A stretch of 64,000 nt of DNA. Source: a plasmid. The position numbers were made by a program, and so were the translations under genes. The notes beneath the pieces were generated by a model. The model was not told the origin of the DNA. It made no database searches and saw only the letters and a list, made by a program, of their open reading frames with translations. The stretch lies in sequence record NZ_CP106961.1; one strand, given 5' to 3'. Shown piece by piece: positions 12,848 through 59,482 of this stretch; positions within the stretch are counted from its first letter, which is position 1; every line of letters starts with the position of its first letter.

Positions 12848-14141
12848 ATTAAACCTCATCTCTCATATATTGGTTATGTCAGTAAGATACGTAAGTATTT
12901 CGTATCTCTCGTCGTTCGATAAATAAATTTAGTCGATGTGCAGGTCCTGTCAAACCTGTTTTTTATCATGCGTGAGGGTTTCCTGATATTACGGGGGGTG
13001 ATTTTACGTTTCGCTTGATTTATATAATCGACCACACTTACGCCAGTAACCTGCTGTTTTATGGGAGGGCCTGTAACAAAAATCAAAGACTAAAAGTAGT
13101 TAACGAAGCGCAAAGCACAATGTTTTCATGTGTAAGCAATCAGTTTCCAAAGATATAAAACGGATTTTTCTTATTTTGGCCAAAAAAAAGCCGCTGGGGA
13201 GCGGCTGTAAACAAGGGAAATCCAGATGCTTTCATACTATTTCAGGCTAGCTGTTGTTTTCATTTTTCACAAGTTGAATTACATAAGAGGTGACCATGCC
13301 TGTATCACATACTAACGTTCAGAATATAACGATCATAAATATTCTCGACACTTTTAGCGTCAGGTTTGATATTTTTCAATAGATCCATATTGTCGGACAA
13401 AATTGTACATATCTGTCCGCGTGGAAATGCCCGCAGAAAACATCCGGAACCAGCGCCAGCCGGAAGCCATGGCCTATTCAGCAGTAATTACCCGTTGGCG
13501 CATTTACGATCGAACTGGAGAGAAAAAAGCCCGCACGGGAGCGGGCATAATTCCCTTAGTTTTGTTATCAATCCCGCGCTCAGGACGCAGGTATATAACC
13601 TATCGACAGCATAAACAATTACTTTAAGAAGGCAATTTTTCAGGTCGTTGCCTGGCTCAACGGCGCAGGCGCAAATGGGGCCAGGACAGGGGCTACAGCA
13701 GCAGTGACAGATGAAGCGGGATATGTTGTCGCCTCGTTATACGATGAGATTTTCTGCTCTGCTGATCGTACGCTGATATCCAGTGATGCTGCGGAGATCG
13801 AGGGGTAAGTCTGAGGAAGAAGCCGAAGTGGTGGGACGGGTGGCATTTTTCTTCAACTTAACTGACAGTGATGAGTGTCCGGTATAAGAAGCGGCATAAA
13901 TTTGAACGCCATGGCGGGGGGAGATTTAATGTCTCCCCTTGTGGCCTCTAATGTCCACTATGAGCGGGAAGCGGACATTGAGCCATTCAAATAATCTGTG
14001 CCAAAATTTGTCATTAAGGCCAGCACTTTCGGGTAGATCCATTTCCCGCCCGCCCCTTAAACTCACCTTTCTCACTCACCTACGGCTTATCACCGGGAGT
14101 AAAAAACCCGCCGAAGCGGGTTTAGTAATTTGAATTTATTC

Positions 14142-14468
14142 TCAGGCGGCCATCTTTCTGCATTGCTCTGCGCAGTGATGACAAGCTCTGGAGCACTCCT
14201 GGCAATGGTCATGTTCATGCTTTCCACACTCATCGCCGCACTTCTGACAAACGTCAGCGCAAAGACGGCAGAGCGCTTGGGCTGAATCGCTATTTAGTGT
14301 CATGAATTGAGCTGCAAGACGGCAGATATTTGCACATTGCATATCCAGTTTTATGCACTCGCGCATCATCTCAAGATTCTCTTCTTCGAGACACGAAGCC
14401 GCACAGTTATCACATGCAGTTGCGCATAGATAACAGGATTCGATGCATTTTTTATATTCGTCTAACAT
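14142..14468 (-). CDS. Cysteine-rich four-helix-bundle copper-binding protein (DUF326 family)
   Basis: 108 aa with repeated CxxxC/CxxC motifs (CATACDNCAASC, CANICRLAA, CADVCQKCGDEC, CHHCAEQC). Confidence 0.7.
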   Translation of the reverse strand: MLDEYKKCIESCYLCATACDNCAASCLEEENLEMMRECIKLDMQCANICRLAAQFMTLNSDSAQALCRLCADVCQKCGDECGKHEHDHCQECSRACHHCAEQCRKMAA

Positions 14469-14605: not shown

Positions 14606-14629
14606 GCCCGCTTCTGGCACAAAGCGGAC
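14606..14629. repeat. Conserved hairpin motif, copy A (gcccgcttctggcacaaagcggac), immediately 3-prime of the vapC stop
   Basis: Stem CCGCTT/AAGCGG with loop CTGGCACA. It is one of five copies in the window. Confidence 0.8.
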
Positions 14630-14656: not shown

Positions 14657-15073
14657 TCAGTTAACCCAGTCTTCCAGCACCAGGCCCGGCACGCGTTCAA
14701 ACTCTCTCACATTATTCGTCACGAGGACGGCACCAGCAGCAATCGCATGCCCGGCAATTGCCGTGTCGTTAGGGCCGATTGGCGTCCCGGCGAGGCGCAG
14801 CGCGACCTTAATGTCCGTGGTGGCGTCCACCGCAGCGCTGTCCCAGGGCAGGATGGCATCGAGGCGGGCGCAGAATGCGTCAACCAGCTGGATGTGGCGC
14901 GGGGAGGCTTTCGGGCCGGTGGCGCCGAAGCGCATCTCGGAATAGGTGATGGCCGAGATCACGATACGCTGGTTGCGCAGCACCGCCTGCTCCAGACGCT
15001 TCAGGACGGCTTCCGGCTGCTCGCGCATGATGAATGAGCAGATACAGGTGTCCAGCATATAGGTTTTATTCAC
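14657..15073 (-). CDS. vapC: VapC toxin (PIN-domain RNase) of a VapBC/MvpAT-type toxin-antitoxin pair
   Basis: PIN motifs (MLDTCICSF, VLVTNNVREFERVPGLVLEDW) resemble MvpA/VapC. The ATG overlaps the vapB stop (ATGA). Confidence 0.85.
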   Translation of the reverse strand: MNKTYMLDTCICSFIMREQPEAVLKRLEQAVLRNQRIVISAITYSEMRFGATGPKASPRHIQLVDAFCARLDAILPWDSAAVDATTDIKVALRLAGTPIGPNDTAIAGHAIAAGAVLVTNNVREFERVPGLVLEDWVN

Positions 15074-15300
15074 AGATCAAATCGTCCTTCGTCGGTGACA
15101 ACGTCCTCGCGCTCCGCCATAAAGTCCGGGTCTGCCTTCTCGAGCTGCGCGAACGAGCCCCAGGTCGGCCGGACGGGACGCAAAATAATGCTGTCCCCTT
15201 CCCGGACGATCTCCAGCTCGCTCACCCCCTCAAAATCGAGATCGCGGGGGAGGCGGATGGCGCGGTTGTTGCCATTTTTAAAAATGGATACGGTTCTCAT
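15070..15300 (-). CDS. vapB: VapB antitoxin (SpoVT/AbrB-type)
   Basis: 76 aa. The N-terminal sequence MRTVSIFKNGNNRAIRLPRDL is typical of VapB/MvpT antitoxins. It is translationally coupled to vapC. Confidence 0.85.
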   Translation of the reverse strand: MRTVSIFKNGNNRAIRLPRDLDFEGVSELEIVREGDSIILRPVRPTWGSFAQLEKADPDFMAEREDVVTDEGRFDL

Positions 15301-15470: not shown

Positions 15471-15799
15471 TATACGGAGTATTCTCTTTTTTGCGCAGAT
15501 CCGAAAAAAGGTAAAGTCGGATCTGGACTGAGTAACCGTATGGAGGGGGATGGAAATACGGTAAGAGGGAGTCAAAGCAAAAGGCAGGTAGGAACGAAAG
15601 GTCCGCCTTGAGCGAGGAGCGGAACTTCACTCATACTCCCTCAGTTGATTGGATTAAAATTATCGTGCTGTCACCCACTCAGCTTCGCTGTAAGGGTGAC
15701 CAGCGAAAATTAAGCACAAATTTCTGAGATACAGGTTTTGCCGTCGTAAGACGAAATATTGGGCAGACAGTATTCGATCTCAGAGTCAAGCTCACTTAC

Positions 15800-16189
15800 T
15801 TATTTATCGACCATCAGCGGTACATCTTCCATTCTTGCGCCGCCGTTCAGCCGGAATGTGATAGTGATAATTTTCGGCAACGAAGTGGGTTCCAGGCCAC
15901 ACCACTTATTCATTGCACGGAGCGTTTCTTTCTCAAACACATCGGCGGGCTGCGCTGATAAGATTATGATGTTTTCCGCACACCCTTTTGTATTCACAGT
16001 GTATGAAGCCCTTACAACCCCCTCAATCCGGCCAGCCTGTGCTTTTGCAGGATAATAGGGCTGGTTCACCGTGGCGGATTTACCTGCCTTTGTGTCTCCA
16101 GGCGCATGTTGCTGGCCCGACAGTGTTTGCTTGTGAACACACCCTGTTGCCAGCATAGCCAGCGTTATAGCCATCATTAAACGTTTCAT
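15800..16189 (-). CDS. TonB C-terminal-domain family lipoprotein
   Basis: Signal peptide with a lipobox (MKRLMMAITLAMLATGC). The C-terminal part is TonB_C-like. An AAGGAAAAG ribosome-binding site lies upstream. Confidence 0.55.
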   Translation of the reverse strand: MKRLMMAITLAMLATGCVHKQTLSGQQHAPGDTKAGKSATVNQPYYPAKAQAGRIEGVVRASYTVNTKGCAENIIILSAQPADVFEKETLRAMNKWCGLEPTSLPKIITITFRLNGGARMEDVPLMVDK

Positions 16190-16353
16190 TCTTTTCCTTG
16201 ATAAAGCAGCCACCTGTAGCATCCCCAGCAAAATGAATACCGGACGTATTATTAGCAACTCGATAATAATACGTATTCATAGAAAGGTGCATGTGTGAGT
16301 ATTCCTGCAAAACTAACCATCAACCTTTAGAGAGTCTCTGGCAACCCCAACTT

Positions 16354-16375
16354 CCGCTTCTGGCACAAAGCGGAC
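16354..16375. repeat. Conserved hairpin motif, copy B (ccgcttctggcacaaagcggac)
   Basis: Same stem and loop as copy A. It lies about 180 bp 3-prime of the GIY-YIG gene. Confidence 0.8.
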
Positions 16376-16558
16376 CAGTGCGCAGAGCTAGGTCCGATAA
16401 GAGCGAGGAGCAGACGTTGACCATTCTGTTCAACGTCTTCAGACTCAGCCCTTAACTCTCAGTTCTTCGCGAATTGGACCTTGAAAGTAGATGCTACCTT
16501 TATGGTAAAGATCAACTGACTCATGGTGATGAGTCAGTTAAAATCTGTAAAAAAAATC

Positions 16559-17299
16559 TTAGACAATCCCAACTTTTACAAATGGACTTCCGTGACTGCG
16601 TGTTTTTTTGATTAATTTACCCACATACAAGTCTCTAACTTCTTTAGCTGCAATTCGGCCAACAAACTCGGAGCGATTGGTATTCATAGTAATGTTTAAA
16701 TCACGCGTAAAGTATTGTTGAGAGCCAGCCTTCACCCAGCACTGTATTTCATAGACCTCCATGACAAGCCCGCCATAAGTTGCGTAAGCAAATTTAAGTC
16801 TCTCGTCTTTAGGGATATTTGCCCAAATGCCGCGAGTGGACTCATATAGCTCCAATGCGCTCATACCAGACTTGTATGTACTGTTTAAAAGAAAGGCGAG
16901 CCCGGCATGTTCACATGCGATTTCGGTTTCTTCTTTGAGTAGCAAGTGCTGGAGTTCATCAAGCGTGATGCGTCCCATAAGAGAGCTACTTCCTCGAACT
17001 TTATTAGTAAGTTCTCCCACACCTAAGAGATCGATACATGTTGCCTCAACAAGTTTGGCCGTTGATTCATCCATTCCATGGCGAAGAATATCGATACCCA
17101 AGTTTTTTCTTTCTAAAAGCTCTTTGATCCGCTCAGATTTCGGAGATTCATCAGGACGTTTGATATGGTCAAGACAGCGATCGGACTTCCCCTTTCCAAT
17201 GTAAAAAGGCTTCTTGAACTCATCTTCCTTGTCATAAAAGGCATATACATAGTACTTAGCCAAATCCAAAGATTTTGTATATTTTGATAAATCCCTCAA
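16559..17299 (-). CDS. GIY-YIG nuclease-family protein (246 aa)
   Basis: The N-terminal sequence YVYAFYDKEDEFKKPFYIGKGKSDRCLDH matches the GIY...YIG motif. The C-terminal 150 aa are uncharacterised. Confidence 0.65.
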   Translation of the reverse strand: MRDLSKYTKSLDLAKYYVYAFYDKEDEFKKPFYIGKGKSDRCLDHIKRPDESPKSERIKELLERKNLGIDILRHGMDESTAKLVEATCIDLLGVGELTNKVRGSSSLMGRITLDELQHLLLKEETEIACEHAGLAFLLNSTYKSGMSALELYESTRGIWANIPKDERLKFAYATYGGLVMEVYEIQCWVKAGSQQYFTRDLNITMNTNRSEFVGRIAAKEVRDLYVGKLIKKTRSHGSPFVKVGIV

Positions 17300-17423: not shown

Positions 17424-17446
17424 GTCCGCTCCTGGCACAAAGCGAC
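17424..17446. repeat. Conserved hairpin motif, copy C (gtccgctcctggcacaaagcgac), upstream of the GIY-YIG gene
   Basis: Variant copy that retains the loop CTGGCACA. Confidence 0.7.
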
Positions 17447-17877
17447 CTTTGTCATGAATCCTGACTCACTGTCTGAGGCAGGAGCAGGCCCGCTGAATGC
17501 GGCTTTAGCGGCAGGAAGCGTTAGATAACGTTGAGCTGAACGGCGCCGTAAGCCCGGCTCCGCCGGTTATATTCTGATATATGGCGCTCCCCATTCCTGT
17601 CAGTGTATCGAATCTCACAGGTGAACCAGCCGCAGACTGCTTCCATAGGCTGCAGGTTAAAACGTTTGCTTACTTTCTGAATCATGAGGGCTTTTCTGGT
17701 GGCCCAATATCCGGTTAACGATAACTTTCAGAAAATGAACCCTGCCTCTCTGGGATGATTAGGATTAACTAATCATCTTATGGAATTGTAAAATCCCGTA
17801 TGAAATTAAAAAATCTGTGCGGGATTGCCGTTTTATTAAGGCTGCACTGCAGTCAATTAAAGAGAGGGAGACTGAAT

Positions 17878-18300
17878 ATGCGTGTTCGCCTGACCACTGA
17901 AAACGATGCTATATCACTGATTACTATCGATATTGTTGCCCAGAGCCAGCCAAAAGGTGCGGCGCAAATCCGCATCTGGTGTGCCTGGTCTGTCTGTTAT
18001 ATTGCCGAACTGCAGGGAATAGCGATGGGATATGGCGTGCTGAACTACCATTTCTTCGGCTACGGCTTTATTGAAATGCTGATGGTAGGGGAACACTACC
18101 GCCGCAGGGGTATCGGTCTGGCGTTGATTGCAGCATTGAAGTCCCGCTGCCAGCACCCGAAGCTGTTCACCTCCACCCATCGTTCTAACCTGCCAATGCA
18201 ACGGCTGCTGTTGAACGCCGGATTTATCCCCAGCGGTCAGGTCGACAATCTCGATGACGGGGACCCGGAAGCGATATTTTTTATTCCAGCCTTAACGTAG
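17878..18300 (+). CDS. GNAT-family N-acetyltransferase
   Basis: Acetyl-CoA-binding motif (RRRGIGLALI). Start chosen at MRVRLTTEND, which has a ribosome-binding site. Confidence 0.7.
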   Translation: MRVRLTTENDAISLITIDIVAQSQPKGAAQIRIWCAWSVCYIAELQGIAMGYGVLNYHFFGYGFIEMLMVGEHYRRRGIGLALIAALKSRCQHPKLFTSTHRSNLPMQRLLLNAGFIPSGQVDNLDDGDPEAIFFIPALT

Positions 18301-18759
18301 CGCAGAGAGAAGGGTACACAGACACCCATATCCAGGGTGCCAGGCTCAGCGAGGCCAGGGTTTTAGCGACCTCTGTATCTAACGGGAAGTGCCTCTCTGA
18401 GAAGGTTCTGGCAGTGAATCAGGCAAAAACTGGCCGGGTGTAAGGTAAATCATCTTTCTGATAAATCGGGTCTTTACCTTCAGGCTGCGTCTGAGATTGC
18501 TGCCGATAATTGCTAACTGTTTTACGCAAATATTCCCGCAACGCTACCGGCTGCTGCCGCTCGGCTTGATGCGGCATCATCCTGACCTTTTCCCGGCTGT
18601 CTTTGACCGTCATCCCCGGCCAGCATTCCTCAACGTATCCGATAAGAAACCTCCCGATTGCCTTGCTGTCGATTGCGTTATCAATCATGGCAGCTAAGCT
18701 TAGTTGACACTTACCCGGTCGGGCAGCCACACCTTTCCGGCCGCAAGCAGGAGAAGATC

Positions 18760-19893
18760 ATGAAAGCAGTTATTTACAACGGTCCCTATGATGTAAAAGT
18801 TAAAGACGTGCCGGATGCAAAAATTGTTCGCCCCACCGATGTGCTTGTCCGCATTACCACCACCAATATTTGTGGATCGGATTTGCACATGTACGAGGGT
18901 CGGACCAGCTTTGAGCAGGGACGTATTTTGGGGCACGAAAACCTGGGTGAGGTGGTTGAAATTGGCTCAGGAGTGGAGCGTGTTAAGGTCGGTGACTATG
19001 TCTGTCTGCCATTTAATGTCGGATGCGGTTTTTGCGAGAATTGTGAAAAAGGTCTGACCGGTTTTTGCCTCACCACCAATCCCGGTACTGTGGGCGCGGC
19101 CTATGGTTTTGCTGAAATGGGCTCCTGGGAGGGTGGTCAGGCGGAACTGCTTCGGGTCCCCTTTGCAGACTTTAACTGCCTGGTGCTTCCGCCTGACGCA
19201 GTAGAAAAAGAAGATGATTATGTGATGCTCTCTGACATTTTCCCTACCGGCTGGCATGCGACAGAACTCGCCGGATTAAAGCCTGGCGAAAGCGTAGCCA
19301 TTTACGGCGCGGGGCCGGTGGGTCTGATGGCCGCACACTCAGCCATGATAAAAGGCGCTTCACAGGTATTTGTAGTGGATACACACCAGGACCGTTTAGC
19401 GCTGGCAGAGAAAATGGGGGCGACGGGCATCAATGCGACCGGCGATGAAGCCGTGCAACGAATTCTCGACTTAACTGACGGACGCGGCACTGACTGTGGC
19501 TGTGAATGCGTGGGCTATCAGTGCTGTAACAAACATGGCCATGAAGATAATTCGGTCACTATGAACAGCCTCGTTGCATCAACCAAAGCAACCGGGGGAA
19601 TTGGTGTGGTTGGCGTGTTTATCCCGCAGGATCCGGGAGCTGCATCAGACCTTTCCAAAGAAGGTAAGATGCCGTTTGATTTCGGCAGTTTTTGGTTTAA
19701 AGGACAGTCAATCCGCACCGGCCAGGCGAACGTCAAAGCCTATAATCGTCAGCTGGCCCGTCTGATCCATCAGGGTAAAGCCAGCCCGGGCGGCATAATC
19801 TCACACCGTCTTTCACTTGCTGAGGCGCCTGAGGGATATAAGCACTTTGACGATCGCGATGAGGGATGGACGAAGGTTATCCTTAAGCCTTAA
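18760..19893 (+). CDS. fdhA: Glutathione-independent formaldehyde dehydrogenase (zinc-dependent ADH family)
   Basis: MKAVIYNGPYDVKVKDVPDAKIVRPTDVLVRITTTNICGSDLHMYEGR with a GHE zinc motif and a GAGPVG Rossmann motif. Confidence 0.8.
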   Translation: MKAVIYNGPYDVKVKDVPDAKIVRPTDVLVRITTTNICGSDLHMYEGRTSFEQGRILGHENLGEVVEIGSGVERVKVGDYVCLPFNVGCGFCENCEKGLTGFCLTTNPGTVGAAYGFAEMGSWEGGQAELLRVPFADFNCLVLPPDAVEKEDDYVMLSDIFPTGWHATELAGLKPGESVAIYGAGPVGLMAAHSAMIKGASQVFVVDTHQDRLALAEKMGATGINATGDEAVQRILDLTDGRGTDCGCECVGYQCCNKHGHEDNSVTMNSLVASTKATGGIGVVGVFIPQDPGAASDLSKEGKMPFDFGSFWFKGQSIRTGQANVKAYNRQLARLIHQGKASPGGIISHRLSLAEAPEGYKHFDDRDEGWTKVILKP

Positions 19894-20197
19894 CTGACGC
19901 TGATCGGTTATAAAAGTTAAATCGGAACAATTAAACCGGAACAATGTAGAAATATCGACGGGATACCATTGCGTATCCTGTCATAATATTTATCTTCTGC
20001 TGCCAGGCTCGCCCCTGTATCTATTGTGATGTTTAATGACGCATTATGAATATTATCAGGACCTGTGAATAGCGCCCGATCTTCTTCAGGCATAAACGAA
20101 ATAAACGCTATTCATGTAATAACGATGAGAGTGGGTGAGAATGAAGTGCGATATTATAAGGATTCTATGTAACATCATGTCGGGATAGATCCAGAGT

Positions 20198-20231
20198 CAA
20201 AGCCACCTGAGTATTACAGGTGGCTTTTAAA
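20198..20231. terminator. Bidirectional rho-independent terminator between fdhA and the hydrolase gene
   Basis: aaagccacctgagtattacaggtggcttttaaa forms a GC stem flanked by A and T runs. Confidence 0.65.
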
Positions 20232-20249
20232 CGATTCTGAGCTGCGTTT

Positions 20250-21386
20250 TTACCTTAAGCTGGTTTTGAAAAACTGTTCAAACCTGGCAAAAGGGATCTT
20301 ACCTGCAGCGTTGTCGTATAAGTCCACGTGGTTTGCGCCGGGGACGATCACAAGCTCTTTTTCAGTGCTGCCAACCGCTTTGTAGGCATCTTCTGCAAAA
20401 TAGCGCGAGTGCGCTTTTTCACCTGTAACAATCAACACAGGAATAGTGATTTCATTTGCGTAGCTAAGCAGCGGCATATTCATAAACGACAAGGGCATCG
20501 TTGCATTCCATGCGCCATTAGAGTTAACAGAACGCCCATGGAAGCCGCGTGGCATTCTGTAATAATCAAAAAACTCTTTCAGTACCGGGTGTGGATTCGC
20601 GGGTAATGTTTCCGGCAGAATTCGCTCAGAAGCGCTTACGCTGCCATTCTTATCCACATTAATATCGTGACTACCGCGGGCGATAGTTCCGCTTTCAGCA
20701 TCTTTCCAGCGCTGCTCGTTCAGGTACTGTAATACGGCACGGCGATCGGCTGTTGAATAACGGTCTTTGCCATCACCAACGCCATGTCCCATCGCCCGGC
20801 TCATGTCGTACATCACGCTGGTCGCAACTGCTTTTACGCGTGTATCCATCGCCGCCGCATTGAGTGCCATGCCTCCCCAGCCGCAAATACCGAGTAATCC
20901 AATACGATGGCGATCCACCTCTTTTTGTAATCCAAGGAAATCAACCGCCGCGCTAAAGTCCTCAGTGTTGATATCCGGAGAGGCGACATTACGCGGATAG
21001 CCACCACTTTCACCCGTGTAAGAAGGATCGAATGCCAGCGCAACAAATCCCTGTTCGGCCAGGGTCTGTGCATACAGGCCGCTTGATTGCTCTTTGACCG
21101 CACCGAAAGGACCACTTAATGCAATCGCAGCCAGTTTACGTTCGCCCCGGTTTTTGGGGATGTAAAGATCCCCTACTAATATGATCCCGTAACGGTTCTG
21201 GAATGCCACCTTGCGATGATCAACCTTATCGCTCTCTGCAAAGGTTTTATCCCATTTTTCTACCATTGAAACAGGCGAGTTCGGATTAGATGTGTCAGCA
21301 TAACTCATTGTCGTAACTCCACTTAATGATACGCATAGCAGCATAGCGGGTAGCGCGGCTGTCAGCTTTCTGGTGAAAACATTCAT
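20250..21386 (-). CDS. Secreted alpha/beta-hydrolase family protein
   Basis: Signal peptide followed by a GxCxWG nucleophile-elbow-like motif (LGICGWGG). 378 aa. Confidence 0.6.
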   Translation of the reverse strand: MNVFTRKLTAALPAMLLCVSLSGVTTMSYADTSNPNSPVSMVEKWDKTFAESDKVDHRKVAFQNRYGIILVGDLYIPKNRGERKLAAIALSGPFGAVKEQSSGLYAQTLAEQGFVALAFDPSYTGESGGYPRNVASPDINTEDFSAAVDFLGLQKEVDRHRIGLLGICGWGGMALNAAAMDTRVKAVATSVMYDMSRAMGHGVGDGKDRYSTADRRAVLQYLNEQRWKDAESGTIARGSHDINVDKNGSVSASERILPETLPANPHPVLKEFFDYYRMPRGFHGRSVNSNGAWNATMPLSFMNMPLLSYANEITIPVLIVTGEKAHSRYFAEDAYKAVGSTEKELVIVPGANHVDLYDNAAGKIPFARFEQFFKTSLR

Positions 21387-21585
21387 TTAAATTCCCCTGA
21401 AAAAGAAAAGTGAGGTACCGGTTTCATACGGAGAGTACTGCTGTGCTTTGATGCAATGCGCTCATTATAGGTAGCAGAAATAGTGCTGATTAGAGGGTAA
21501 AAATTGCTAGGATTAATAGCATATTGTTATAAATGAAGGGCCGCAGCAGACATCATTTGCGGCCAGATATTCTGAGGACGCGCAA

Positions 21586-22470
21586 ATGGCAAAACGGGAA
21601 AACTATAATGAGCTCTACTTGTTTATGCAGGTGGTGCGGGAGGGCAGTTTCACTGCAGCGGCACATCGTCTTGGACTTGCACAATCAGGCGTTAGTCGTT
21701 CTGTCCGTGAACTTGAAGAAAGGCTGGGTATACAGCTTCTGGTTCGCACTACGCGCAGGCTGTCGTTAACACAGGCAGGTGAGCAACTGTATCAGACAAC
21801 AGAATCCGGATTTGATGCTTTAGATACGGGTTTTGCCACGCTGGCGTATTACCGGAATACCCCGTCCGGTACGGTACGCATCAATGCCAGCCAGCATGCT
21901 ATTGATAAAGTTCTTTTACCGAAGCTGGCGCTATTTAAGCACCGTTACCCCGATATCAGGCTTGAACTCATCAGTGAAAGCCGGTTCGTCGATATTATCG
22001 CTGAGCGGTTTGATGCCGGCGTGCGGCTGGGGCCGGAGGTAGGACAGGGCATGGTCGCGGTGCGTATTACACCTGACATGGAGATGGTTGTTGTAGCTAC
22101 GCCCGAGCATTTTCGTCGCTATGGCTTTCCACAAACACCGGCTGATTTAGTGATTCATCCTTGTATAGCCTACCAGTTTGCCGATGGTAGCCTTTATCAG
22201 TGGGAACTCCTTCAGGACGGTAAAAAAATAACGCACCGACCACAAGGACAGTGGGCCTTTTCTGACAGCTACATGGAAGCAAAAGCAGCCAGACTGGGGC
22301 TGGGGCTGGCTTATGTCCCGGAGGAACTGGTCGCTGATGATTTAGAGCAAGGCAATCTTATCAGGGCGTTGCCACGTTACAGCCAGCGCCTGGAAGGTTC
22401 ATTCCTGTATTATCCTCACCGCAATGTGTCGCCGGCACTGAGAGTCGTCATTGATATACTGAAAATCTGA
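21586..22470 (+). CDS. LysR-family transcriptional regulator, divergent from the hydrolase gene
   Basis: N-terminal HTH (FTAAAHRLGLAQSGVSRSVRELEERLG) and a LysR substrate-binding domain. Confidence 0.85.
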   Translation: MAKRENYNELYLFMQVVREGSFTAAAHRLGLAQSGVSRSVRELEERLGIQLLVRTTRRLSLTQAGEQLYQTTESGFDALDTGFATLAYYRNTPSGTVRINASQHAIDKVLLPKLALFKHRYPDIRLELISESRFVDIIAERFDAGVRLGPEVGQGMVAVRITPDMEMVVVATPEHFRRYGFPQTPADLVIHPCIAYQFADGSLYQWELLQDGKKITHRPQGQWAFSDSYMEAKAARLGLGLAYVPEELVADDLEQGNLIRALPRYSQRLEGSFLYYPHRNVSPALRVVIDILKI

Positions 22471-22521
22471 AGTTTAGCTATTTATATTCTTCGTTGTTCC
22501 GCTCTTTGTTATCGGAATAAC

Positions 22522-22545
22522 GTCCGCTTATGGCACTAAGCGGAC
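22522..22545. repeat. Conserved hairpin motif, copy D (gtccgcttatggcactaagcggac). It has a perfect 8-bp stem.
   Basis: It lies between the LysR stop and the vapC remnant. Confidence 0.75.
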
Positions 22546-22573
22546 ATTCTTACCTTCTGCATTCTTAATGTCG

Positions 22574-22870
22574 TCAGTTCACCCAGTCTTCCAGCACCAG
22601 GCCCGGCACCCGCTCAAACTCTCTCACATTATTCGTCACCAGAACCGCACCGGCGGCAATGGCGTGCCCGGCGATAGCCGTGTCGTTCGGGCTGATTGGC
22701 GTCCCGGCGAGGCGCAGCGCGACCTTTATATCCGTGGTCGCATCAACCGCGCCGAGGCCTTAGGACCGGTGGCACCGAAGCGCATTTCGGAGTATGTAAT
22801 TGCCGAGACATCGATGCGCTGGTAGCGCAGCACTGCATGCTCCAGGCGCACGGCGGAAGGCCTTAACGCA
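22574..22870 (-). pseudogene. vapC: vapC 3-prime remnant. It is about 85% identical to the vapC 3-prime end at 14657-14830, with an internal deletion.
   Basis: DNA alignment by eye: tcagttcacccagtcttccagcaccaggcccggcac... matches the end of the intact vapC. Confidence 0.7.
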
Positions 22871-22887: not shown

Positions 22888-23508
22888 TCATTTCGTCATC
22901 TTCCCACCTTTCGGCTCCGCCCGGGCCAGGATCAGCAACTCGGCCTGCAGGGCGCGGTTTTCTTCCCGGGCGTCCTTCAGCTCCCCCTTCGTTTCCTTCA
23001 GCTGTGCTGCCAGATGTTCGCCGGTTGCCGTCAGGCGGGCCACCTGCTCTCGCAGCGGCAGCGCCTCATCCCGCAGCTCCCGGACGTCCTGCAGCAGGCG
23101 GTCCCGCTCGGCCACCACCTCGCGCAGCACCGCCAGCTCGCTCTCCAGGGCGGTCACTTTCGCCAGGGCCTCATCCCGCTCCCGGTCGGCCTGCGCAATA
23201 TCCGCGTCAGCCTGCTCGCGCGCCGCCAGGGTGACAGCGTCCGCCTGTTTCACAGCCGCCTGCCACAGCAGCCCCAGCTGGCCGGTCAGGAGCTGCGCCA
23301 GCTCCGGCGGCAGCGCCGGGGCCTGCTCGGCGCGCTGCTCCCGTTGCCGGGCGCGGAACGCGCGCATCACCGGGGAGATATGCGACAGGGAGCCGCCGCC
23401 GAGGTGGGCGCGGACCTGATCGTTGGTCGGGTTCGGGGTGCCGACGGCGATGAGGGCGGTGGCGGCGTCCTCGATACGGCGGACGGTTTCGGGTGGCAGT
23501 GTGCTCAT
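22888..23508 (-). CDS. KfrA-like protein (N-terminal DNA-binding domain plus coiled-coil), very GC-rich
   Basis: The N-terminus MSTLPPETVRRIEDAATALIAVGTPNPTNDQVRAHLGGGS resembles KfrA_N. The rest is an Ala/Glu/Arg-rich coiled-coil. Confidence 0.5.
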   Translation of the reverse strand: MSTLPPETVRRIEDAATALIAVGTPNPTNDQVRAHLGGGSLSHISPVMRAFRARQREQRAEQAPALPPELAQLLTGQLGLLWQAAVKQADAVTLAAREQADADIAQADRERDEALAKVTALESELAVLREVVAERDRLLQDVRELRDEALPLREQVARLTATGEHLAAQLKETKGELKDAREENRALQAELLILARAEPKGGKMTK

Positions 23509-42571: not shown

Positions 42572-42794
42572 GTTGGAGTCATTACCCGTTTTTCCGAAAA
42601 GAGTTAACACTGTCAGGCGACGAGTTTCTTCAGGGCTGTTGGCAGCATTTATATCCGTAAGACCACCTGTTTTTTTCTACTTATTAAAATGTACCTTTGA
42701 AAAAGTAGTCTTTCTGCGGTACGCTTCACGGGACCATTTCCCCTGAGTTTTCGCACAGCGCGCCGGACGTTTTCCGGCCGGACCGGAGCCTGAC

Positions 42795-43787
42795 ATGAGC
42801 CTGATGCCTGATGACGAACAGGAACGTAATCTTCTGGCAGCAGCGATCCCGCTGGATGAGACATTTCTGCCGGCGCTGTCCGGCAATAACGTTCCGGTAA
42901 ATCCGGCCCGGGCTTACCTATTGTCCCTTAATTCCCAACGTAGCCGGCAGACCATGGCTTCGTTCCTCGGGATTGTCGCCAAAATGCTTGGTGCCGGTAG
43001 CGCTGACACCTGCAACTGGGGCAGCATTCGCCGGTATCACGTTATGGTAATCACCGAGTTACTGCGCGATACTGGCCGGGGGATGGCAACTATTAACACC
43101 TATCTGTCGGCTCTTAAGGGCGTAGCGAAGGAAGCCTGGATGCTCCGCCTGATGGACGTTGAGAGCTTCCAGCACATCCGGGCGGTACCGAACCTGCGTG
43201 GCAGCCGGCTGCCAAGCGGTCGGGCCCTGCCGCCGGAGGAGATCCGCGCGTTGTTTGCCGTGTGTGAGGCCGATCGCAGCTGCCTCGGGCCGAGGGACGC
43301 GGCGATGCTGGCGGTTATCCTGGGATGTGGCCTGCGGCGGTCCGAGGCCGTGGGCCTAGATTTACGTGACGTTGTCACGCACAATCGGGCGCTACGGGTG
43401 CTGGGGAAGGGGAACAAGGAGCGTCTGGCCTACGTCCCGGCCGGGGCCTGGCAGCGGCTGCAGATCTGGATCGATGAGGTCCGGGGCGAAACCCCGGGGC
43501 CGCTGTTCACGCGGATCCGCCGCTTCGGGGATGTGACACTGAACCGGCTCACCGACCAGGCGGTGTACCATATCCTGCAGGTGCGTCAGGGGCAGGCCGG
43601 GATCGGTAAGTGCTCGCCACATGACCTGCGCAGGACCTTCGCAACTGCCATGCTGGATAACGGTGAGGACTTAATTACGGTTAAAGATGCGATGGGTCAC
43701 GCCAGCGTTACGACCACCCAACAGTACGATCGTCGCGGAGAACAGCGTCTTCGAGATGCCCGCGATAGGCTCAATCTTGTCAAATGA
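42795..43787 (+). CDS. Tyrosine-type site-specific recombinase / integrase
   Basis: C-terminal catalytic motifs (LRRSEAVGL...HDLRRTFAT...GHASVTTTQQYD). GC-rich. Confidence 0.75.
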   Translation: MSLMPDDEQERNLLAAAIPLDETFLPALSGNNVPVNPARAYLLSLNSQRSRQTMASFLGIVAKMLGAGSADTCNWGSIRRYHVMVITELLRDTGRGMATINTYLSALKGVAKEAWMLRLMDVESFQHIRAVPNLRGSRLPSGRALPPEEIRALFAVCEADRSCLGPRDAAMLAVILGCGLRRSEAVGLDLRDVVTHNRALRVLGKGNKERLAYVPAGAWQRLQIWIDEVRGETPGPLFTRIRRFGDVTLNRLTDQAVYHILQVRQGQAGIGKCSPHDLRRTFATAMLDNGEDLITVKDAMGHASVTTTQQYDRRGEQRLRDARDRLNLVK

Positions 43788-46896: not shown

Positions 46897-47369
46897 TGCG
46901 TGAATTTAATACCACCCGGCAAACCATACACAGGGTAAAGGCAGGGCAATAATGATCCTGCGTTCACAGCTGGACGGTCTGCTATAAAGTGAGGTGCAGA
47001 CATTGTCACAGACTTCCGCGCCTCGCTCATAGCAGTCAGAAAGCGTTGTTGCTGGCTGCTCTGTGCTGTGAGTTCAACTGTTCGATGCAACGCTCAGACG
47101 CGCTCAGCGCGTTTCTGACATGTCCTCGTTAAAAACAGTAACAAACCACCCGAAAATGCACGCCAGAAACGCTACGTAAGAATCTATCCTATGCTGGATA
47201 TGCACTCAACTGAATAACGCCTGGTTTCAGTCTGTTTTATCGGCATCAGCCTTCTTTCTGGGTAATTTCGGAGAGGTCACTTGCTGATTACTTTGCGTGC
47301 GTCGCGTGAGCCAGGGCAACCCGATATGGCCGTATCCGCCCGCAAAAAAGTGGCCCTCATCGTCGACTT

Positions 47370-50124: not shown

Positions 50125-50535
50125 TCAAAGGTTAATTATCTGGCCAGAACCCTGAGCTTCCATCACTGGAAGCACAGCCCCAATTCCCCACAGCACGCCC
50201 TTGATGTTAACGTCAATCGTACGTTCCCATTCATCCTGTTTGCCGGCCGCAAGCGGTGAAAGTGGCATGATGCCCGCATTGTTAATCAGAACGTCAACAC
50301 GCCCCCAGTTATCAAGCGCTGACTGCACGAAATGAGCCATGGACAGTCTGTTTGTGACATCCAGCTCACGCGCTTCAGCCATACCGCCGGCGCTGCGGAT
50401 TTCTGCTGCAATGGCTTCGATACGATCCAGTCTGCGCGCCCCTAATAGCACTCTCGCACCTGCTTTTCCAAGCTCTCTGGCAATGCCTTCCCCAATGCCA
50501 CTTGACGCGCCGGTAATTAATATAACTTTATCCAT
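50125..50535 (-). pseudogene. SDR-family oxidoreductase, 3-prime truncated at the IS481 fragment junction
   Basis: MDKVILITGASSGIGEGIARELGKAGARV...NNAG cofactor motifs. Only 136 aa remain and the catalytic YxxxK region is missing. Confidence 0.7.
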
Positions 50536-50633
50536 GATGTGCTCCTTCAGTTGAGTTCAGAGAGATGATAGACCTTTATGATTAGTTCCAGTATCCTGCT
50601 TTTACTGGACTCAGTGATTAGCAGAATTAAACA

Positions 50634-51533
50634 ATGAAAATTGATCTCAATCTTTTACCTGTTTTTATCGCGGTTGCTGAAGAGCGTAATTTCACCATAG
50701 CCGCAGCCCGGCTGGGGGTTACGCGCTCGGCGGTTAGTCAGGGAATACGGCGGCTTGAGGATACTTTCGGCACAATGCTGGTAATGCGGACAACACGTTC
50801 AGTAAACCTGACTGAAGCGGGAGAACGACTGCGTACATCCCTGTCATTATCTTTATCCAGCATTGACGCTGCGTTCGAAGATATTGCATCCGACAGCACG
50901 CCACGTGGACTTCTGAGGATCGCGGTGACCTCCATAGCTGAAGAGTTTCTTTCAGGTCCGCTGATCGCCTCGTTTGCGGCTGCTAATCCAGCCGTGACGA
51001 TCGATATTGTCGTGATAGATGAGGAATTTGATATTGTGGCCGCTGGTTATGATGCTGGCGTAAGGCTCGGAGATGTGATCGAGAAGGATATGATTGCCGT
51101 CCCGCTTACAGAAAAGCAACGTGAAATGGTGGTTGCGTCCCCATCCTATCTCACTGCTTGTAGCGCCCCTCTTCATCCGCGTGAGCTTGTACATCATCAG
51201 TGTATCGGCTGGCGTCCTTCCCCGGATGTTGCTCCTTATCGCTGGGAATTTGAGGAGAACGGGAGAGCTTTCGACGTGGCGGTAGAACCGCGAATAACAA
51301 CTAATGACCTGCGTCTCATGCTGAGGCTGGCTCTTGCCGGTGGAGGTATAACATTTGCCCCTGAGGAAACATTCAGGCCGTATATTGAAAATGGTCAACT
51401 TGTTTCAATGCTTGATGATTTTCTTCCCCATTTTCCTGGCTTTTATCTGTACTTTCCTCAACGCCGGAATATAGCGCCAAAACTACGCGCCCTAATCGAA
51501 CATGTCAGGCAATGGCAGCAACCGTATGCTTAA
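50634..51533 (+). CDS. LysR-family transcriptional regulator (second, unrelated to the one at 21586)
   Basis: HTH FTIAAARLGVTRSAVSQGIRRLEDTFG. Divergent from the SDR gene. Confidence 0.85.
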   Translation: MKIDLNLLPVFIAVAEERNFTIAAARLGVTRSAVSQGIRRLEDTFGTMLVMRTTRSVNLTEAGERLRTSLSLSLSSIDAAFEDIASDSTPRGLLRIAVTSIAEEFLSGPLIASFAAANPAVTIDIVVIDEEFDIVAAGYDAGVRLGDVIEKDMIAVPLTEKQREMVVASPSYLTACSAPLHPRELVHHQCIGWRPSPDVAPYRWEFEENGRAFDVAVEPRITTNDLRLMLRLALAGGGITFAPEETFRPYIENGQLVSMLDDFLPHFPGFYLYFPQRRNIAPKLRALIEHVRQWQQPYA

Positions 51534-51602: not shown

Positions 51603-51626
51603 GTTCGCTTCTGGCACAAAACGGAC
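51603..51626. repeat. Conserved hairpin motif, copy E (gttcgcttctggcacaaaacggac)
   Basis: Same loop CTGGCACA. It lies between the LysR stop and the vapC remnant. Confidence 0.7.
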
Positions 51627-51644: not shown

Positions 51645-51790
51645 TGTCAGCGGTCAGTTAATCCAGTCTCCCTGCGTGAGGCCAGGCAACTGCTCAAACG
51701 CCCTAATATGGTCGTTACCAGCACGATGCCGGCGCCAATGGTATGCCCGGCGATCGCCGGGCCGTTCAGACCAATCGGCATCCAGCGTCG
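51645..51790 (-). pseudogene. vapC: vapC 3-prime remnant (about 70% identical to the intact vapC 3-prime end)
   Basis: tcagttaatccagtctccctgcgtgaggccaggcaactgctcaaacgccctaatatggtcgttaccagcacgatgccggc... aligns by eye with the end of vapC. Confidence 0.55.
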
Positions 51791-51811: not shown

Positions 51812-52816
51812 TTACTGATGCCGAAACTGCAGCGTTGCGGGCAGGTAGCGTTGTAGCGTTTCGGGCGTATCGCCCTCGATCAGCTGGCTTATCAGATCGT
51901 AGCAGTGCCAGGCCAGCTGGCGATTATCCTGCTGGACAGTGTCGATACGCAGCGACAGCGAATCATAAAGATAGTGATCGTCAAAGCTCGTCAGATGAAT
52001 ATCGGAGTCGAGTAAATGGTGCTGGCTCATATAGCGCAGAACCCCTTCGAGCAGCCCGCAGGCGGCGGTGAATAGCGCCTTAGGCGGCCGCCCAAGGCGC
52101 GCGCAGAGTGCGGCAAACATCTCATAGCCGGAGCTGGGATGGTAATTGCCGTTGATCACCCATTCCGGGCGCAGGGCAATACCCGCCTGAGCCAAACCCT
52201 GCGTGAACCCGGTCAGACGATCGCGGGAGGGCGACAGACGCGCCTGACCGCCTAAAAACCAGAACTCATCGCTATGCTGAGGCGCGATGCGGGAAATCAG
52301 TTCCGCCGTTGGGGTAATCGAATCGGTCATTACCAGCGGCAGCGCGCTTTCATTGGGGCACCGGTCAAACAGCACCACTGGCAGCTGTTGGCTGAGTTTG
52401 AGATAGTCGGCATCGTTGTGCATACAGGAAGCGACGATCATCCCGTCGACCTGGCGGGCAATCATATTATTGACCACCACGCTCTCCTGACCGGGGTTTT
52501 CATCAGTACAAGAGATCAACAGCTGGACGCCCGCCTCGCGGCACAGCATCTCCAGCTCATGGGCAAAGACCGCAAAGCCGTGGTTGGTGATCTCCGGCAC
52601 CACCAGCCCGATGGTGTGGCTGCGGTTGTTGCGCAGCGAGCGGGCATGAATGCTTGGCTGATAGTGATGCTTACGGGCAATCGACAGTACGCGCTCACGC
52701 GTTTCCTGCGCCACGCGCAGCTCCTTGCCACGACCATTCAGTACCAAGCTGGCGGTCGCTTTGGAGACGCCAGCCTGTTCGGCTATATCTTTAATGGTTA
52801 CGCGTTTGGTTTTCAT
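51812..52816 (-). CDS. scrR: Sucrose operon repressor ScrR (LacI family)
   Basis: [31 protein letters not shown]. It is the last gene of the scr cluster. Confidence 0.85.
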
Positions 52817-52845
52817 TACGACGCCATGAGCCTGAAGCAAAACGC

Positions 52846-54246
52846 TTATTCTACCATGCAAGTTCGCAGCGGCCAGTAGCAGAATGCGTCCGGCGTGATG
52901 CCGGAGAATGTTAGCTGACCGGAGCAGGCCGGGAAGTAGCGGCTGCTCATCACCCCTTCACCGCCGTTTATGAAAATCTCCACGCTCGACTGGTCGATGA
53001 AAACACGCAGCGAGCGGACGTTTCCGCGCCAGTAACGATAATGCATCTCGTCGCTGGCGAGACTGCGTCGGGCCAGGCGGAGTCCGCTGGCATCGCACTC
53101 AAGGGTTAATACGCCGCCAAAATCGAGGCTCAACATATCGTCCCCGCGGGTTTGCAAATCGATTTCCATCGGTGCCAGCGGCAGGGCGTTCCCCGACCAG
53201 CCGTTCGCTTCACCGCGCAGGGCGCTCAGTTCCCGTAGCGGACGCTGATAGAGCTGACCGTTGATAAACTCCAGCTCACGCAGGCAGGTCATCTGATGGA
53301 TCCAGCCGTTGATGAGGGTCGGCTGAAGCATCTCTTCGCCCTCCGGCACGCCCATCCAGCCGACCAGCAGACGACGGCCATCACTGGTAAGCATGGTTTG
53401 CGGGGCGTAGAACTCAAAGCCGGCGTCCAGTTCGTGCAGTTCGCCATGGCTGAAAGCGCCACTAGCGTAATCAAACTCGCCCGCCATCCATACTGCCGGG
53501 TAGGTGTTCAGGTAACACTTTTCCTCGCGGGCAATCCCCTGCGGACAGCAGATTAGAATATGCTGGTCGCCGAGAGGAAAAAGATCCGGACACTCCCACA
53601 TATAGCCGACGTCGTCGAGGCCATTGATGCCGTGGCCGGCGATTTCACTCATACTCGTCCACTGATGGAGATCCGCAGAGCTGAACAGCAGCACCTTGCC
53701 GCGCTTTTGCCGATCCTGCGCACCCAGCACCATGTACCACAGGTCTTCGTGTCGCCAGACTTTTGGGTCGCGCACGTGGCCGGTGTAGCCCTCCGGCAGC
53801 GGCAGGACCGGGCCGATTTTGCGGAAGGTGCCGTCGGCGCTTTCCCTTGCCAGGCATTGCCAGGCGGTTCGCCCTCCGTCGGCAAACTTCACGTTGCCGG
53901 TATAGCACAGGGTAAGCGTACCGTTGTTATCCACCGCGCTGCCGGAGTAGCAGCCGTTACGGTCATACTCTTCGTCCGGCATCAGCGCAATGGGCTCATG
54001 CTGCCAGTGCAGCAGATCGGGGGAGCTCCAGTGCGCCCAGCACTTAAACGTATGATCGCAGGCGAGCGGGTTCCACTGATAAAACAAGTGATAGCGTCCG
54101 GCAAATTCGACAAAGCCGTTGGGGTCGTTCATCAGCCCGGTGACCGGCGCAAGGTGCCAGCGCGGATAGTGGCTATCGGCCAGCGCACGTGGCTGGCCCT
54201 GTATTACGGCCTGCAAAATCGCAGGCAGTCGTGATGGAAGAGACAT
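52846..54246 (-). CDS. scrB: Sucrose-6-phosphate hydrolase (GH32 invertase) ScrB
   Basis: GH32 motifs ([25 protein letters not shown]). Confidence 0.9.
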
Positions 54247-59349: not shown

Positions 59350-59425
59350 CTATCTGGGGGCCGCTTGGAAAACGGAAAATATCCTACGTTAAGCCTGTTT
59401 TTTAAGCAGGAATGACAGGCAGCAA
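59350..59425 (+). repeat. Tn3-family end micro-remnant (38-bp IR GGGGGCCGCTTGGAAAACGGAAAATATCCTACGTTAAG plus tnpA 3-prime codons ...FLLKKQA* on the minus strand), interior pointing right
   Basis: Inverted near-duplicate of 44100-44215. Confidence 0.65.
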
Positions 59426-59482
59426 TGAGCGAACAGCGGACGTTGACGTTCTTTATAAAAATTCGGTTTGTGTTGTTTTGCA

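Follow-up and report, generated by a model that had tools for sequence, protein, structure and literature searches.

In the pdif modules of Acinetobacter, accessory modules are bounded by 28-bp sites in alternating orientation and are exchanged in an XerC/XerD-dependent manner. For the variable Z-regions of the P2-like phages P2-EC67 and P2-EC30 (records AJ512685 and AJ512676), the paper of these records, by Nilsson et al. from 2004, reportedly proposes site-specific recombination in its title. Here we analysed a stretch of 64,000 nucleotides from a plasmid (record NZ_CP106961.1), hereafter called the window, in which blocks of accessory genes are located between short palindromic sites of two types, H1 and H2. 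The features annotated as "left/right inverted repeat" in both Z-region records contain H1(-)- and H2(-)-type sites bracketing a variable open reading frame (ORF), and the same H1/H2 sites adjoin fun(Z) in P2, where the genes for the sheath and for tail-fibre assembly flank the variable ORF. The Z-region repeats are like H1/H2 both in their sites and in the idea of site-specific exchange; the records name no recombinase. We consider it probable that H1 and H2 are paired recombination sites for the exchange of accessory-gene blocks and that a tyrosine recombinase of 200 amino acids (aa) is the likely enzyme. New in this analysis are the plasmid arrays, the link to the toxin-antitoxin locus vapBC, the division of the sites into two types, the location of the exchange point at the site centre and the candidate enzyme. 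In a literature search, with subscription papers outside its scope, neither the enzyme nor the two site classes nor the plasmid arrays were found to be described, and the hotspot papers Rousset 2022 and iLund4u do not mention repeats at the borders.

H1 has the sequence GTCCGCTTCTGGCACAAAGCGGAC and its inverted partner H2 the sequence GTCCGCTATGAGCGAGGAGCGGAC. Consensus sequences built from 229 distinct copies of H1 and 138 of H2 can be written as GTCCGCTyC-TGGCAC-AAAGCGGAC and GTCCGCTnT-GAGCGA-GGAGCGGAC, respectively. Both sites are about 24-28 bp long, palindromic and asymmetric, and their geometry is compatible with an 11-6-11 organisation. H2 is roughly the reverse complement of H1 (18/22 positions) but always unlike H1 at two central positions. 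In the loci found by a pattern scan, H2 follows about 16 nucleotides (nt) after H1 and shows the 7-bp stem of H1 with another loop; a single long, imperfect hairpin can form across such an H1.H2 doublet. The palindrome motif gave five matches in the window versus 0.03 expected by chance; in total, the window contains six copies of H1 and, by a fuzzy scan against the H2 consensus, at least four of H2. Hybrid sites are rare, with 5 and 14 loci, whereas H1 and H2 each gave more than 120. Sequence conservation extends over stem and loop, the loop bases being as conserved as the stem bases and falling into two discrete classes; this speaks for a site that a protein recognises rather than for a purely structural hairpin. 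A search of the window against Rfam at a permissive threshold returned only two weak, below-threshold matches to a microRNA family at 16505-16548, away from the hairpins. A sigma-54 promoter (TGGCAC-N5-TTGC) was rejected because the downstream element is missing, and a similarity to Rci/sfx was discarded as it is confined to GTGCCA.

Read along its plus strand, the window contains, in this order, H2, DUF326 gene, H1, vapC-vapB, H2, TonB_C gene, H1.H2, GIY-YIG gene, H1 with a degenerate H2, five genes, H1 and a vapC relic. Cargo therefore lies between a left H2 and a right H1, and adjacent units are linked by H1.H2 doublets. This arrangement supports modules bounded by recombination sites.

Comparison with other replicons revealed where these modules break. 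The block formed by an alpha/beta hydrolase gene and a LysR regulator gene recurs at 99.6-100% identity in Leclercia, on IncHI2 plasmids of Salmonella, Enterobacter and Klebsiella, and in Mixta, Pantoea and Buttiauxella, and similarity stops within or just past the H1 that follows it (hairpin D). Five different right-hand neighbours were found, among them a Tn3-family element on the Salmonella, Enterobacter and Klebsiella IncHI2 plasmids, a resolvase gene in Mixta, an IS30-family element inserted in the loop of the site on a Pantoea piersonii plasmid (L004 6523-6545), and H2 with another cassette in a metagenome-assembled genome (MAG) of Buttiauxella. An earlier sequence-only reading of the window had suggested a family of small modules with junctions at the hairpin; this part is supported and can be generalised, the same block occurring on other plasmids with different neighbours. 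In hairpin D the left arm moves with LysR and the right arm changes with the neighbour: the LysR-linked arm is constant in five contexts and carries the rare variant GTCCGCTTA (rare TTA), and the right arm reads TAAG, ACAG or AAAG. At the left edge of the five-gene block, homology between three plasmids, each with a left flank of its own, starts exactly at the H1 of position 17424. Among 262 pairs of H1 sites sharing the right flank only, which are phylogenetically dependent and thus supportive rather than a formal test, variable positions of the right arm were identical (1.00, 0.94) and those of the left arm were at background (0.37-0.42). Pairs sharing the left flank only showed the converse pattern, and H2 behaved likewise. 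As the arms follow their own flanks, the exchange point can be placed within positions 10-15, the central TGGCAC or GAGCGA.

We propose that two replicons would exchange DNA inside these central 6 bp at sites of the same type, H1 with H1 and H2 with H2. A whole H2-H1 block would thereby become replaceable or movable by a double exchange with another replicon, and recombination of like with like would explain the rarity of hybrid sites. On the arrays of the window the recombinase would act in trans, or the exchanges there would be old. The intact vapBC fills the same slot between H1 and H2, and two further H1-linked copies would later have been lost by unrelated deletions.

The candidate enzyme, a tyrosine recombinase of 200 aa (e.g. 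WP_001305361.1 or WP_001752951.1), recurs in site-bearing loci (L115, L128, L141 and L320). It comprises the PF00589 domain only (E = 5e-19), and the motif R...HxxR...H...Y is readable in its sequence as LRGCD, HSLRR, LGH and RY. The protein is distant from XerD and XerA and stays below every NCBIfam cut-off (XerA 58 bits versus 220, XerC 50 versus 335). Thousands of homologues with 76-96% identity are found in Gammaproteobacteria, and others with 50-64% identity are encoded on plasmids of Alpha- and Betaproteobacteria. In 9 of 10 distinct gammaproteobacterial contexts, the stop codon of the gene is followed by a short GC hairpin and then by TGTGCCARRAGCGGAC, which represents the H1 centre plus the cargo-facing arm, and in Enterobacterales and Proteus an H2-type site is located 40-60 nt upstream of the start codon. 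The gene thus lies in the slot that vapBC fills in the window, and its polarity is the same. In a contig of Pantoea agglomerans, where at least six cassettes form an array, the gene is located in one of the H1-H2 junctions, and at least three different settings, all rich in defence genes, were found for an identical Proteus recombinase. The 200-aa recombinase is likely the enzyme acting on H1/H2. The architecture, the breakpoints, the distribution and the linkage of recombinase gene and sites are direct observations, whereas catalysis by this enzyme, the mechanism of exchange and any direction of transfer are inferred.

A serine recombinase as the general enzyme had been suggested by the resolvase gene abutting H1 in Mixta, by a Tn3-family tnpR nearby in Salmonella and by the resemblance of the arms to TGTCYG. 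It was rejected, with only 9 such ORFs in 2.5 Mb of site-bearing loci, most of them tail-fibre invertases kilobases from the sites. Host XerCD was rejected because the site sequence is unlike dif, and an XerC/D-like recombinase encoded in the window (42792-43784) belongs to a different family and is not beside any site. Upstream of the 200-aa recombinase gene, a conserved inverted repeat, AAATCTCC-N7-10-GGAGATTT, overlaps the ribosome-binding region (L115, L128, L141, L320, L387, L395, L396 and L398-L400) and may be an autoregulatory or translational control element. A Providencia island (L387-L392, 100-6644) carries a 6.5-kb unit between two H1(-) sites beside a P4-type integrase, with genes for LysR, two aldo-keto reductases, a hydrolase, a flavodoxin, a glutathione peroxidase and the small recombinase; the unit resembles an integrated circle with its own recombinase and an enzyme-plus-LysR cargo.

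The sites are widely distributed in accessory DNA. The H1.H2 doublet is present in 2,474 PLSDB plasmid records, with up to 21 copies in Pantoea megaplasmids, and in 1,459 of 5,426 complete E. coli genomes, where it is always located in accessory DNA and the median is one copy. A pattern scan of one genome per species gave at least 120 loci, with many Enterobacterales and many Alphaproteobacteria among the matches listed. The same sites were identified in genomic islands and in the Z/fun hotspot of P2-like prophages, where one backbone carries many different cargoes; in a P2-like prophage of E. coli ST131, the order in Z/fun is sheath, H2, DUF6650, H1.H2, ORF, H1, tail-fibre assembly. Consecutive sites in 237 IMG/VR prophage loci formed 71 long H2->H1 intervals (median 1.76 kb) versus 9 long H1->H2 intervals, and 33 short H1->H2 doublets. 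An enrichment of toxin-antitoxin genes in long H1-to-H2 modules was rejected, as these modules are few and heterogeneous and result in part from IS insertions. The cargo is highly diverse, with 186 proteins falling into 150 clusters.

These data allow a wider proposal, which we put forward tentatively. H1, H2 and the catalytic-domain-only recombinase may constitute an uncharacterised cassette-exchange system, parallel to integrons with sites that are not homologous to theirs, on plasmids, in P2-like hotspots, integrative and conjugative elements and islands of Gammaproteobacteria; its relatives would be found in Alpha- and Betaproteobacteria. Double exchange at a pair of heterospecific sites would allow such a system to reshuffle genes for defence, metabolism and toxin-antitoxin pairs. 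The junction slot would hold vapBC or the recombinase gene, and the toxin-antitoxin pair could stabilise the array.

Several observations, besides the phylogenetic dependence of the 262 site pairs, weigh against exchange by the recombinase at H1 and H2. No homologue of the recombinase was found in the window, so that recent exchange there would need an enzyme in trans, or the events are old. The recombinase is present in 444 plasmid records versus the 2,474 with sites, and most arrays would therefore be trans-dependent or relics. The beta- and alphaproteobacterial homologues (about 60% identity) do not have the same downstream half-site. The 237 prophage loci contain, in addition to the 9 long H1->H2 intervals, 15 H1->H1 pairs and 22 inverted H1 pairs. 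Alphaproteobacteria carry the H1 motif at a high copy number reminiscent of repetitive extragenic palindromes (REPs). Finally, some breakpoints at H1 were caused by insertion of an IS110-family insertion sequence (IS) at the site centre or of IS30. On Klebsiella pLH13-d-A (L371 4470-5996), an IS110-family element lies exactly between GTCCGCTTC and CTGGCAC of H1. The junction "right half of H1, vapC relic, scrR" is preceded by an IS110-family right end and is found at 100% identity in many plasmids (also in E. coli pECO-cbb3, L372 3330-3530). H1 therefore appears to be a specific target of the IS110 family.

Such insertions would also fit repeats resembling REPs and bacterial interspersed mosaic elements (BIMEs), which, as a family of extragenic palindromes like the Y and Z REPs of E. 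coli, would spread alone into intergenic DNA by a HUH transposase of the REP-associated tyrosine transposase (RAYT) type or by another route; the sites would then be passive hotspots for illegitimate or short-homology recombination and IS insertion, and the genes between them would not be mobile units. We regard this explanation as unlikely. It agrees with the structure of the H1.H2 doublets, which are inverted palindrome pairs with a short spacer as in BIMEs and REPINs (REP doublets forming hairpins), and with the high copy numbers in Xanthobacteraceae MAGs and on the Pantoea megaplasmids. IS110-family and IS30 elements, both found inserted in the site, both insert into REPs and other palindromes. 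However, no RAYT/IS200-type gene was detected by phmmer in the 2.5 Mb of site-bearing loci (with RayT and IS200 TnpA sequences as queries), and a GTAG-type head motif is absent. Repeats spreading alone are also hard to reconcile with the single median copy in E. coli, always in accessory DNA, and with the consistent orientation of border sites, H2 left and H1 right (71 versus 9). The same holds for exchange points at the site centre and a tyrosine recombinase gene embedded in a site pair.

In the contigs of Xanthobacteraceae, Pseudolabrys and Bradyrhizobium (L007-L126, e.g. L012, L013, L073 and L078), the H1 motif ATGTCCGCTTTTGGCACAAAGCGGACAT is a high-copy intergenic repeat. It is usually followed, after about 20 nt, by another palindrome that shares its stem and has the loop TTGGGGGTA or TTGACCCAA. 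The motif is often located 3′ of genes ending in ...ADEVIE, and FimB-like 200-aa tyrosine recombinases are encoded 45-170 nt from the sites in L067 and L103.

Another explanation would regard the sites as passive, conserved bidirectional terminators or insulators that travel with accessory genes; the mosaic would then arise by ordinary homologous recombination, including that of phage Red/RecT type on short homologies. Sites are intergenic, many of them at 3′ ends of genes, and a GC-rich, terminator-like hairpin stands immediately before the half-site that follows the recombinase gene. However, sites also lie between divergent genes and are not followed by a T-run, the loop is as conserved as the stem and falls into two discrete classes, and the 24 bp of homology are very short for RecA-dependent exchange. 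As the orientation rule (71 versus 9) is left unexplained as well, we consider passive terminators quite improbable.

The features of the window, including both loci at which a vapC fragment follows an enzyme-plus-LysR block, are compiled in the table.

Table 1. Sites, cargo genes and vapBC sequences in the 64,000-nt window of NZ_CP106961.1.
Feature	Position	Strand	Remarks
H2-type site (GTCCACTATGAGCGGGAAGCGGAC)	13953-13976	+	left end of Cu-gene cassette; 3 mismatches to H2 consensus
DUF326 protein (Cu gene)	14142-14468	-	Cys-rich four-helix-bundle protein; cargo
H1-type site, hairpin A	14606-14629	+	27 nt 3′ of the stop of intact vapC
Intact vapC (PIN) and vapB (MazE/AbrB)	14657-15300	-	vapC at 14657-15073; between H1 and H2, slot between cassettes
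H2-type site	15601-15624	+	left end of TonB_C cassette
TonB C-terminal domain protein	15800-16258	-	cargo
H1.H2 doublet	16352-16415	+	hairpin B and H2 (16392-16415), spacer 16 nt; junction of two cassettes
GIY-YIG (LEM-3-like) domain protein	16559-17299	-	cargo
H1 (hairpin C), then degenerate H2	17424-17447, ~17468-17491	+	left boundary of five-gene cassette
Five-gene cargo block	~17448-22533		GNAT, hypothetical gene, glutathione-independent formaldehyde dehydrogenase, hydrolase, LysR
Alpha/beta hydrolase	20250-21386	-	
LysR regulator	21586-22470	+	
H1 site, hairpin D	22522-22545	+	perfect palindrome, 9-6-9
vapC relic D	22574-~22870	-	frameshifted, internal deletion, without 5′ end; 28 nt past hairpin D
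kfrA	22888-23508	-	
Solitary H2-type site	47014-47037	-	opposite orientation, adjoins IS fragment; in no recognisable cassette
Truncated short-chain dehydrogenase/reductase (SDR), 136 aa	50125-50535	-	3′ end cut by IS3-family fragment
LysR	50634-51533	+	cargo remnant 50125-51533 with truncated SDR
H1 site, hairpin E	51603-51626	+	degenerate stem; in other plasmids with an IS110-family element at its centre
vapC relic E	51655-~51790	-	~45 codons, frameshifted
scrR	51812-52861	-	
Weak H2-like match	59418-59441	+	5 mismatches; in no recognisable cassette

The sequence-only reading had described two modules, hydrolase plus LysR and truncated SDR plus LysR, each followed by the hairpin and a diverged vapC remnant. 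All of these elements were found at the positions claimed, the second remnant starting at 51655, but three statements had to be revised. The hydrolase and LysR genes are not a complete module, but the right-hand part of the bigger conserved five-gene block. The hairpin is present at both loci, but the perfect 9-bp stem of hairpin D folds as DNA (-10.7 kcal/mol, z = -5.1), whereas hairpin E has two stem mismatches and its folding is not significant (z = -1.35). A divergence to about 70-85% DNA identity, claimed for the LysR genes as well as for the vapC remnants, applies to the remnants, as relic D shows 84.4% identity to the intact vapC over 257 nt and relic E 71.8% over 177 nt; the two LysR proteins share only 33% amino-acid identity. 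The second site type, H2, had gone unnoticed in that part of the reading. Both copies (22574-22870 and 51655-51790) are vapC pseudogene fragments. The complete form of the second module, DUF1471-SDR-LysR between H2 and H1, was found on Klebsiella pLH13-d-A (L371).

As a whole, the window resembles Leclercia plasmids, e.g. pLEC-5e18 (NZ_CP026390.1). Near 20 kb, the window coordinate equals 130861 minus the position in that record, and by 50 kb this mapping is shifted by about 2.27 kb (window ~23900-51600 compared), so that an insertion or deletion must lie somewhere in this interval; the window may stem from a sister plasmid. Between iraP and the H-NS gene, the plasmid annotation shows ltrA, which encodes a group II intron reverse transcriptase/maturase (L001 19069-20577, corresponding to about 27-29 kb of the window).

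The intact vapBC locus shows the pattern of a type II toxin-antitoxin system, a PIN toxin with an upstream overlapping AbrB/MazE antitoxin. At this locus, homology of other plasmids begins at H1 or at the vapC stop. Three H1 sites of the window and those of L098, L369, L370 and L373 lie 26-28 nt 3′ of the vapC stop, and the cargo beyond the hairpin varies, as would be expected of modules that insert at vapC 3′ ends and leave cargo, hairpin and a partial vapC copy. The spacer between H1 and the vapC stop, however, is homologous in all copies and has diverged along with vapC; the junction was therefore inherited and not re-made at each event. Moreover, the palindrome is missing from most vapBC loci on Klebsiella and E. 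coli plasmids, where similarity to the window starts at the vapC stop codon, and the hairpin was found thousands of times without vapC nearby, in the window itself at 16352 and 17424. H1-linked vapBC was detected with at least five different left-hand cargoes. Intact examples are those of Leclercia pYUSHP29-2, with MarR-aldehyde dehydrogenase-TetR on the far side, and of Klebsiella pTK421_1, with hydrolase-MIF-DsbA-nitronate monooxygenase-LysE, where the innermost gene, LysE, lies between H2 and H1 and a further H2 follows vapB.

Relic D is fused near 22836-22870 to a cut gene that normally follows kfrA, and relic E is joined to the 3′ end of scrR; no intact vapC stands beside either fragment, and in an E. 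coli IncY plasmid with 91% identity over SDR-LysR, a partly deleted H1 is followed by a longer vapC. Since the end points differ and abut unrelated DNA, the relics were left by unrelated deletions. Such variable end points had been named beforehand as evidence against integration into vapC termini. Both fragments are thus deletion relics of once-intact H1-linked vapBC loci and not target duplications, and two unrelated enzyme-plus-LysR cargoes would both end in a hairpin and a vapC fragment because two H1-linked vapBC copies were destroyed independently of each other. Targeting of vapC is not supported, vapC being a neighbour of the site and not its target; modules directed to vapC termini are very improbable and largely refuted, and the proposed integration footprints are not supported either, while the site-bounded modules of the same reading are supported.

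Swapping of accessory and anti-phage genes at hotspots such as P2 Z/fun, plasmid regions and islands is usually put down to unspecified recombination. Paired recombination at H1 and H2 offers a site pair, an exchange point and a candidate enzyme, and it would explain why unrelated enzyme-plus-regulator blocks stand beside the same toxin-antitoxin locus. The sites could also let annotators delimit cargo cassettes in thousands of enterobacterial plasmids.

Among described systems, REP/BIME elements with their RAYTs share with H1/H2 the paired inverted palindromes of two subtypes, the extragenic location and the role as IS110-family targets. They differ from H1/H2, which combine low copy number in E. 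coli, location in accessory DNA and central exchange with a tyrosine recombinase of the integrase fold instead of a HUH enzyme, the 2.5 Mb of loci containing no RAYT. The pdif modules are alike in that accessory modules including toxin-antitoxin pairs lie between sites in alternating orientation, in that the same module is found in different contexts, in hybrid sites whose arms follow their flanks, and in most arrays having no dedicated enzyme. In contrast to pdif, H1/H2 have two classes of central region, a doublet instead of one shared site between modules and a linked dedicated small recombinase, and their sequence is unrelated to the consensus of dif (GGTGCGCATAA-N6-TTATGTTAAAT), cer and psi in a comparison by eye. 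Integrons likewise form arrays of promoter-poor, diverse cassettes with a tyrosine recombinase gene tied to a special site at the cassette edge, and the folding of the H1.H2 doublet with fixed mismatches recalls folded attC. Unlike IntI (~320-340 aa with the IntI-specific insertion), the recombinase described here has 200 aa, no N-terminal core-binding domain and no match to the NCBIfam integron integrase; the H1 and H2 consensus sequences lack the R''/R' GTTRRRY cores of attC, two heterologous sites bound the cassettes, and the enzyme gene is located inside the array at a junction. The H1/H2 system therefore lacks the defining features of integrons and of Xer/pdif sites, and its working would be similar to theirs. 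In our proposal, the swapping of H1/H2 blocks is a natural analogue of recombinase-mediated cassette exchange with heterospecific sites, and the recombinase, if active, would provide a compact natural system of such sites.

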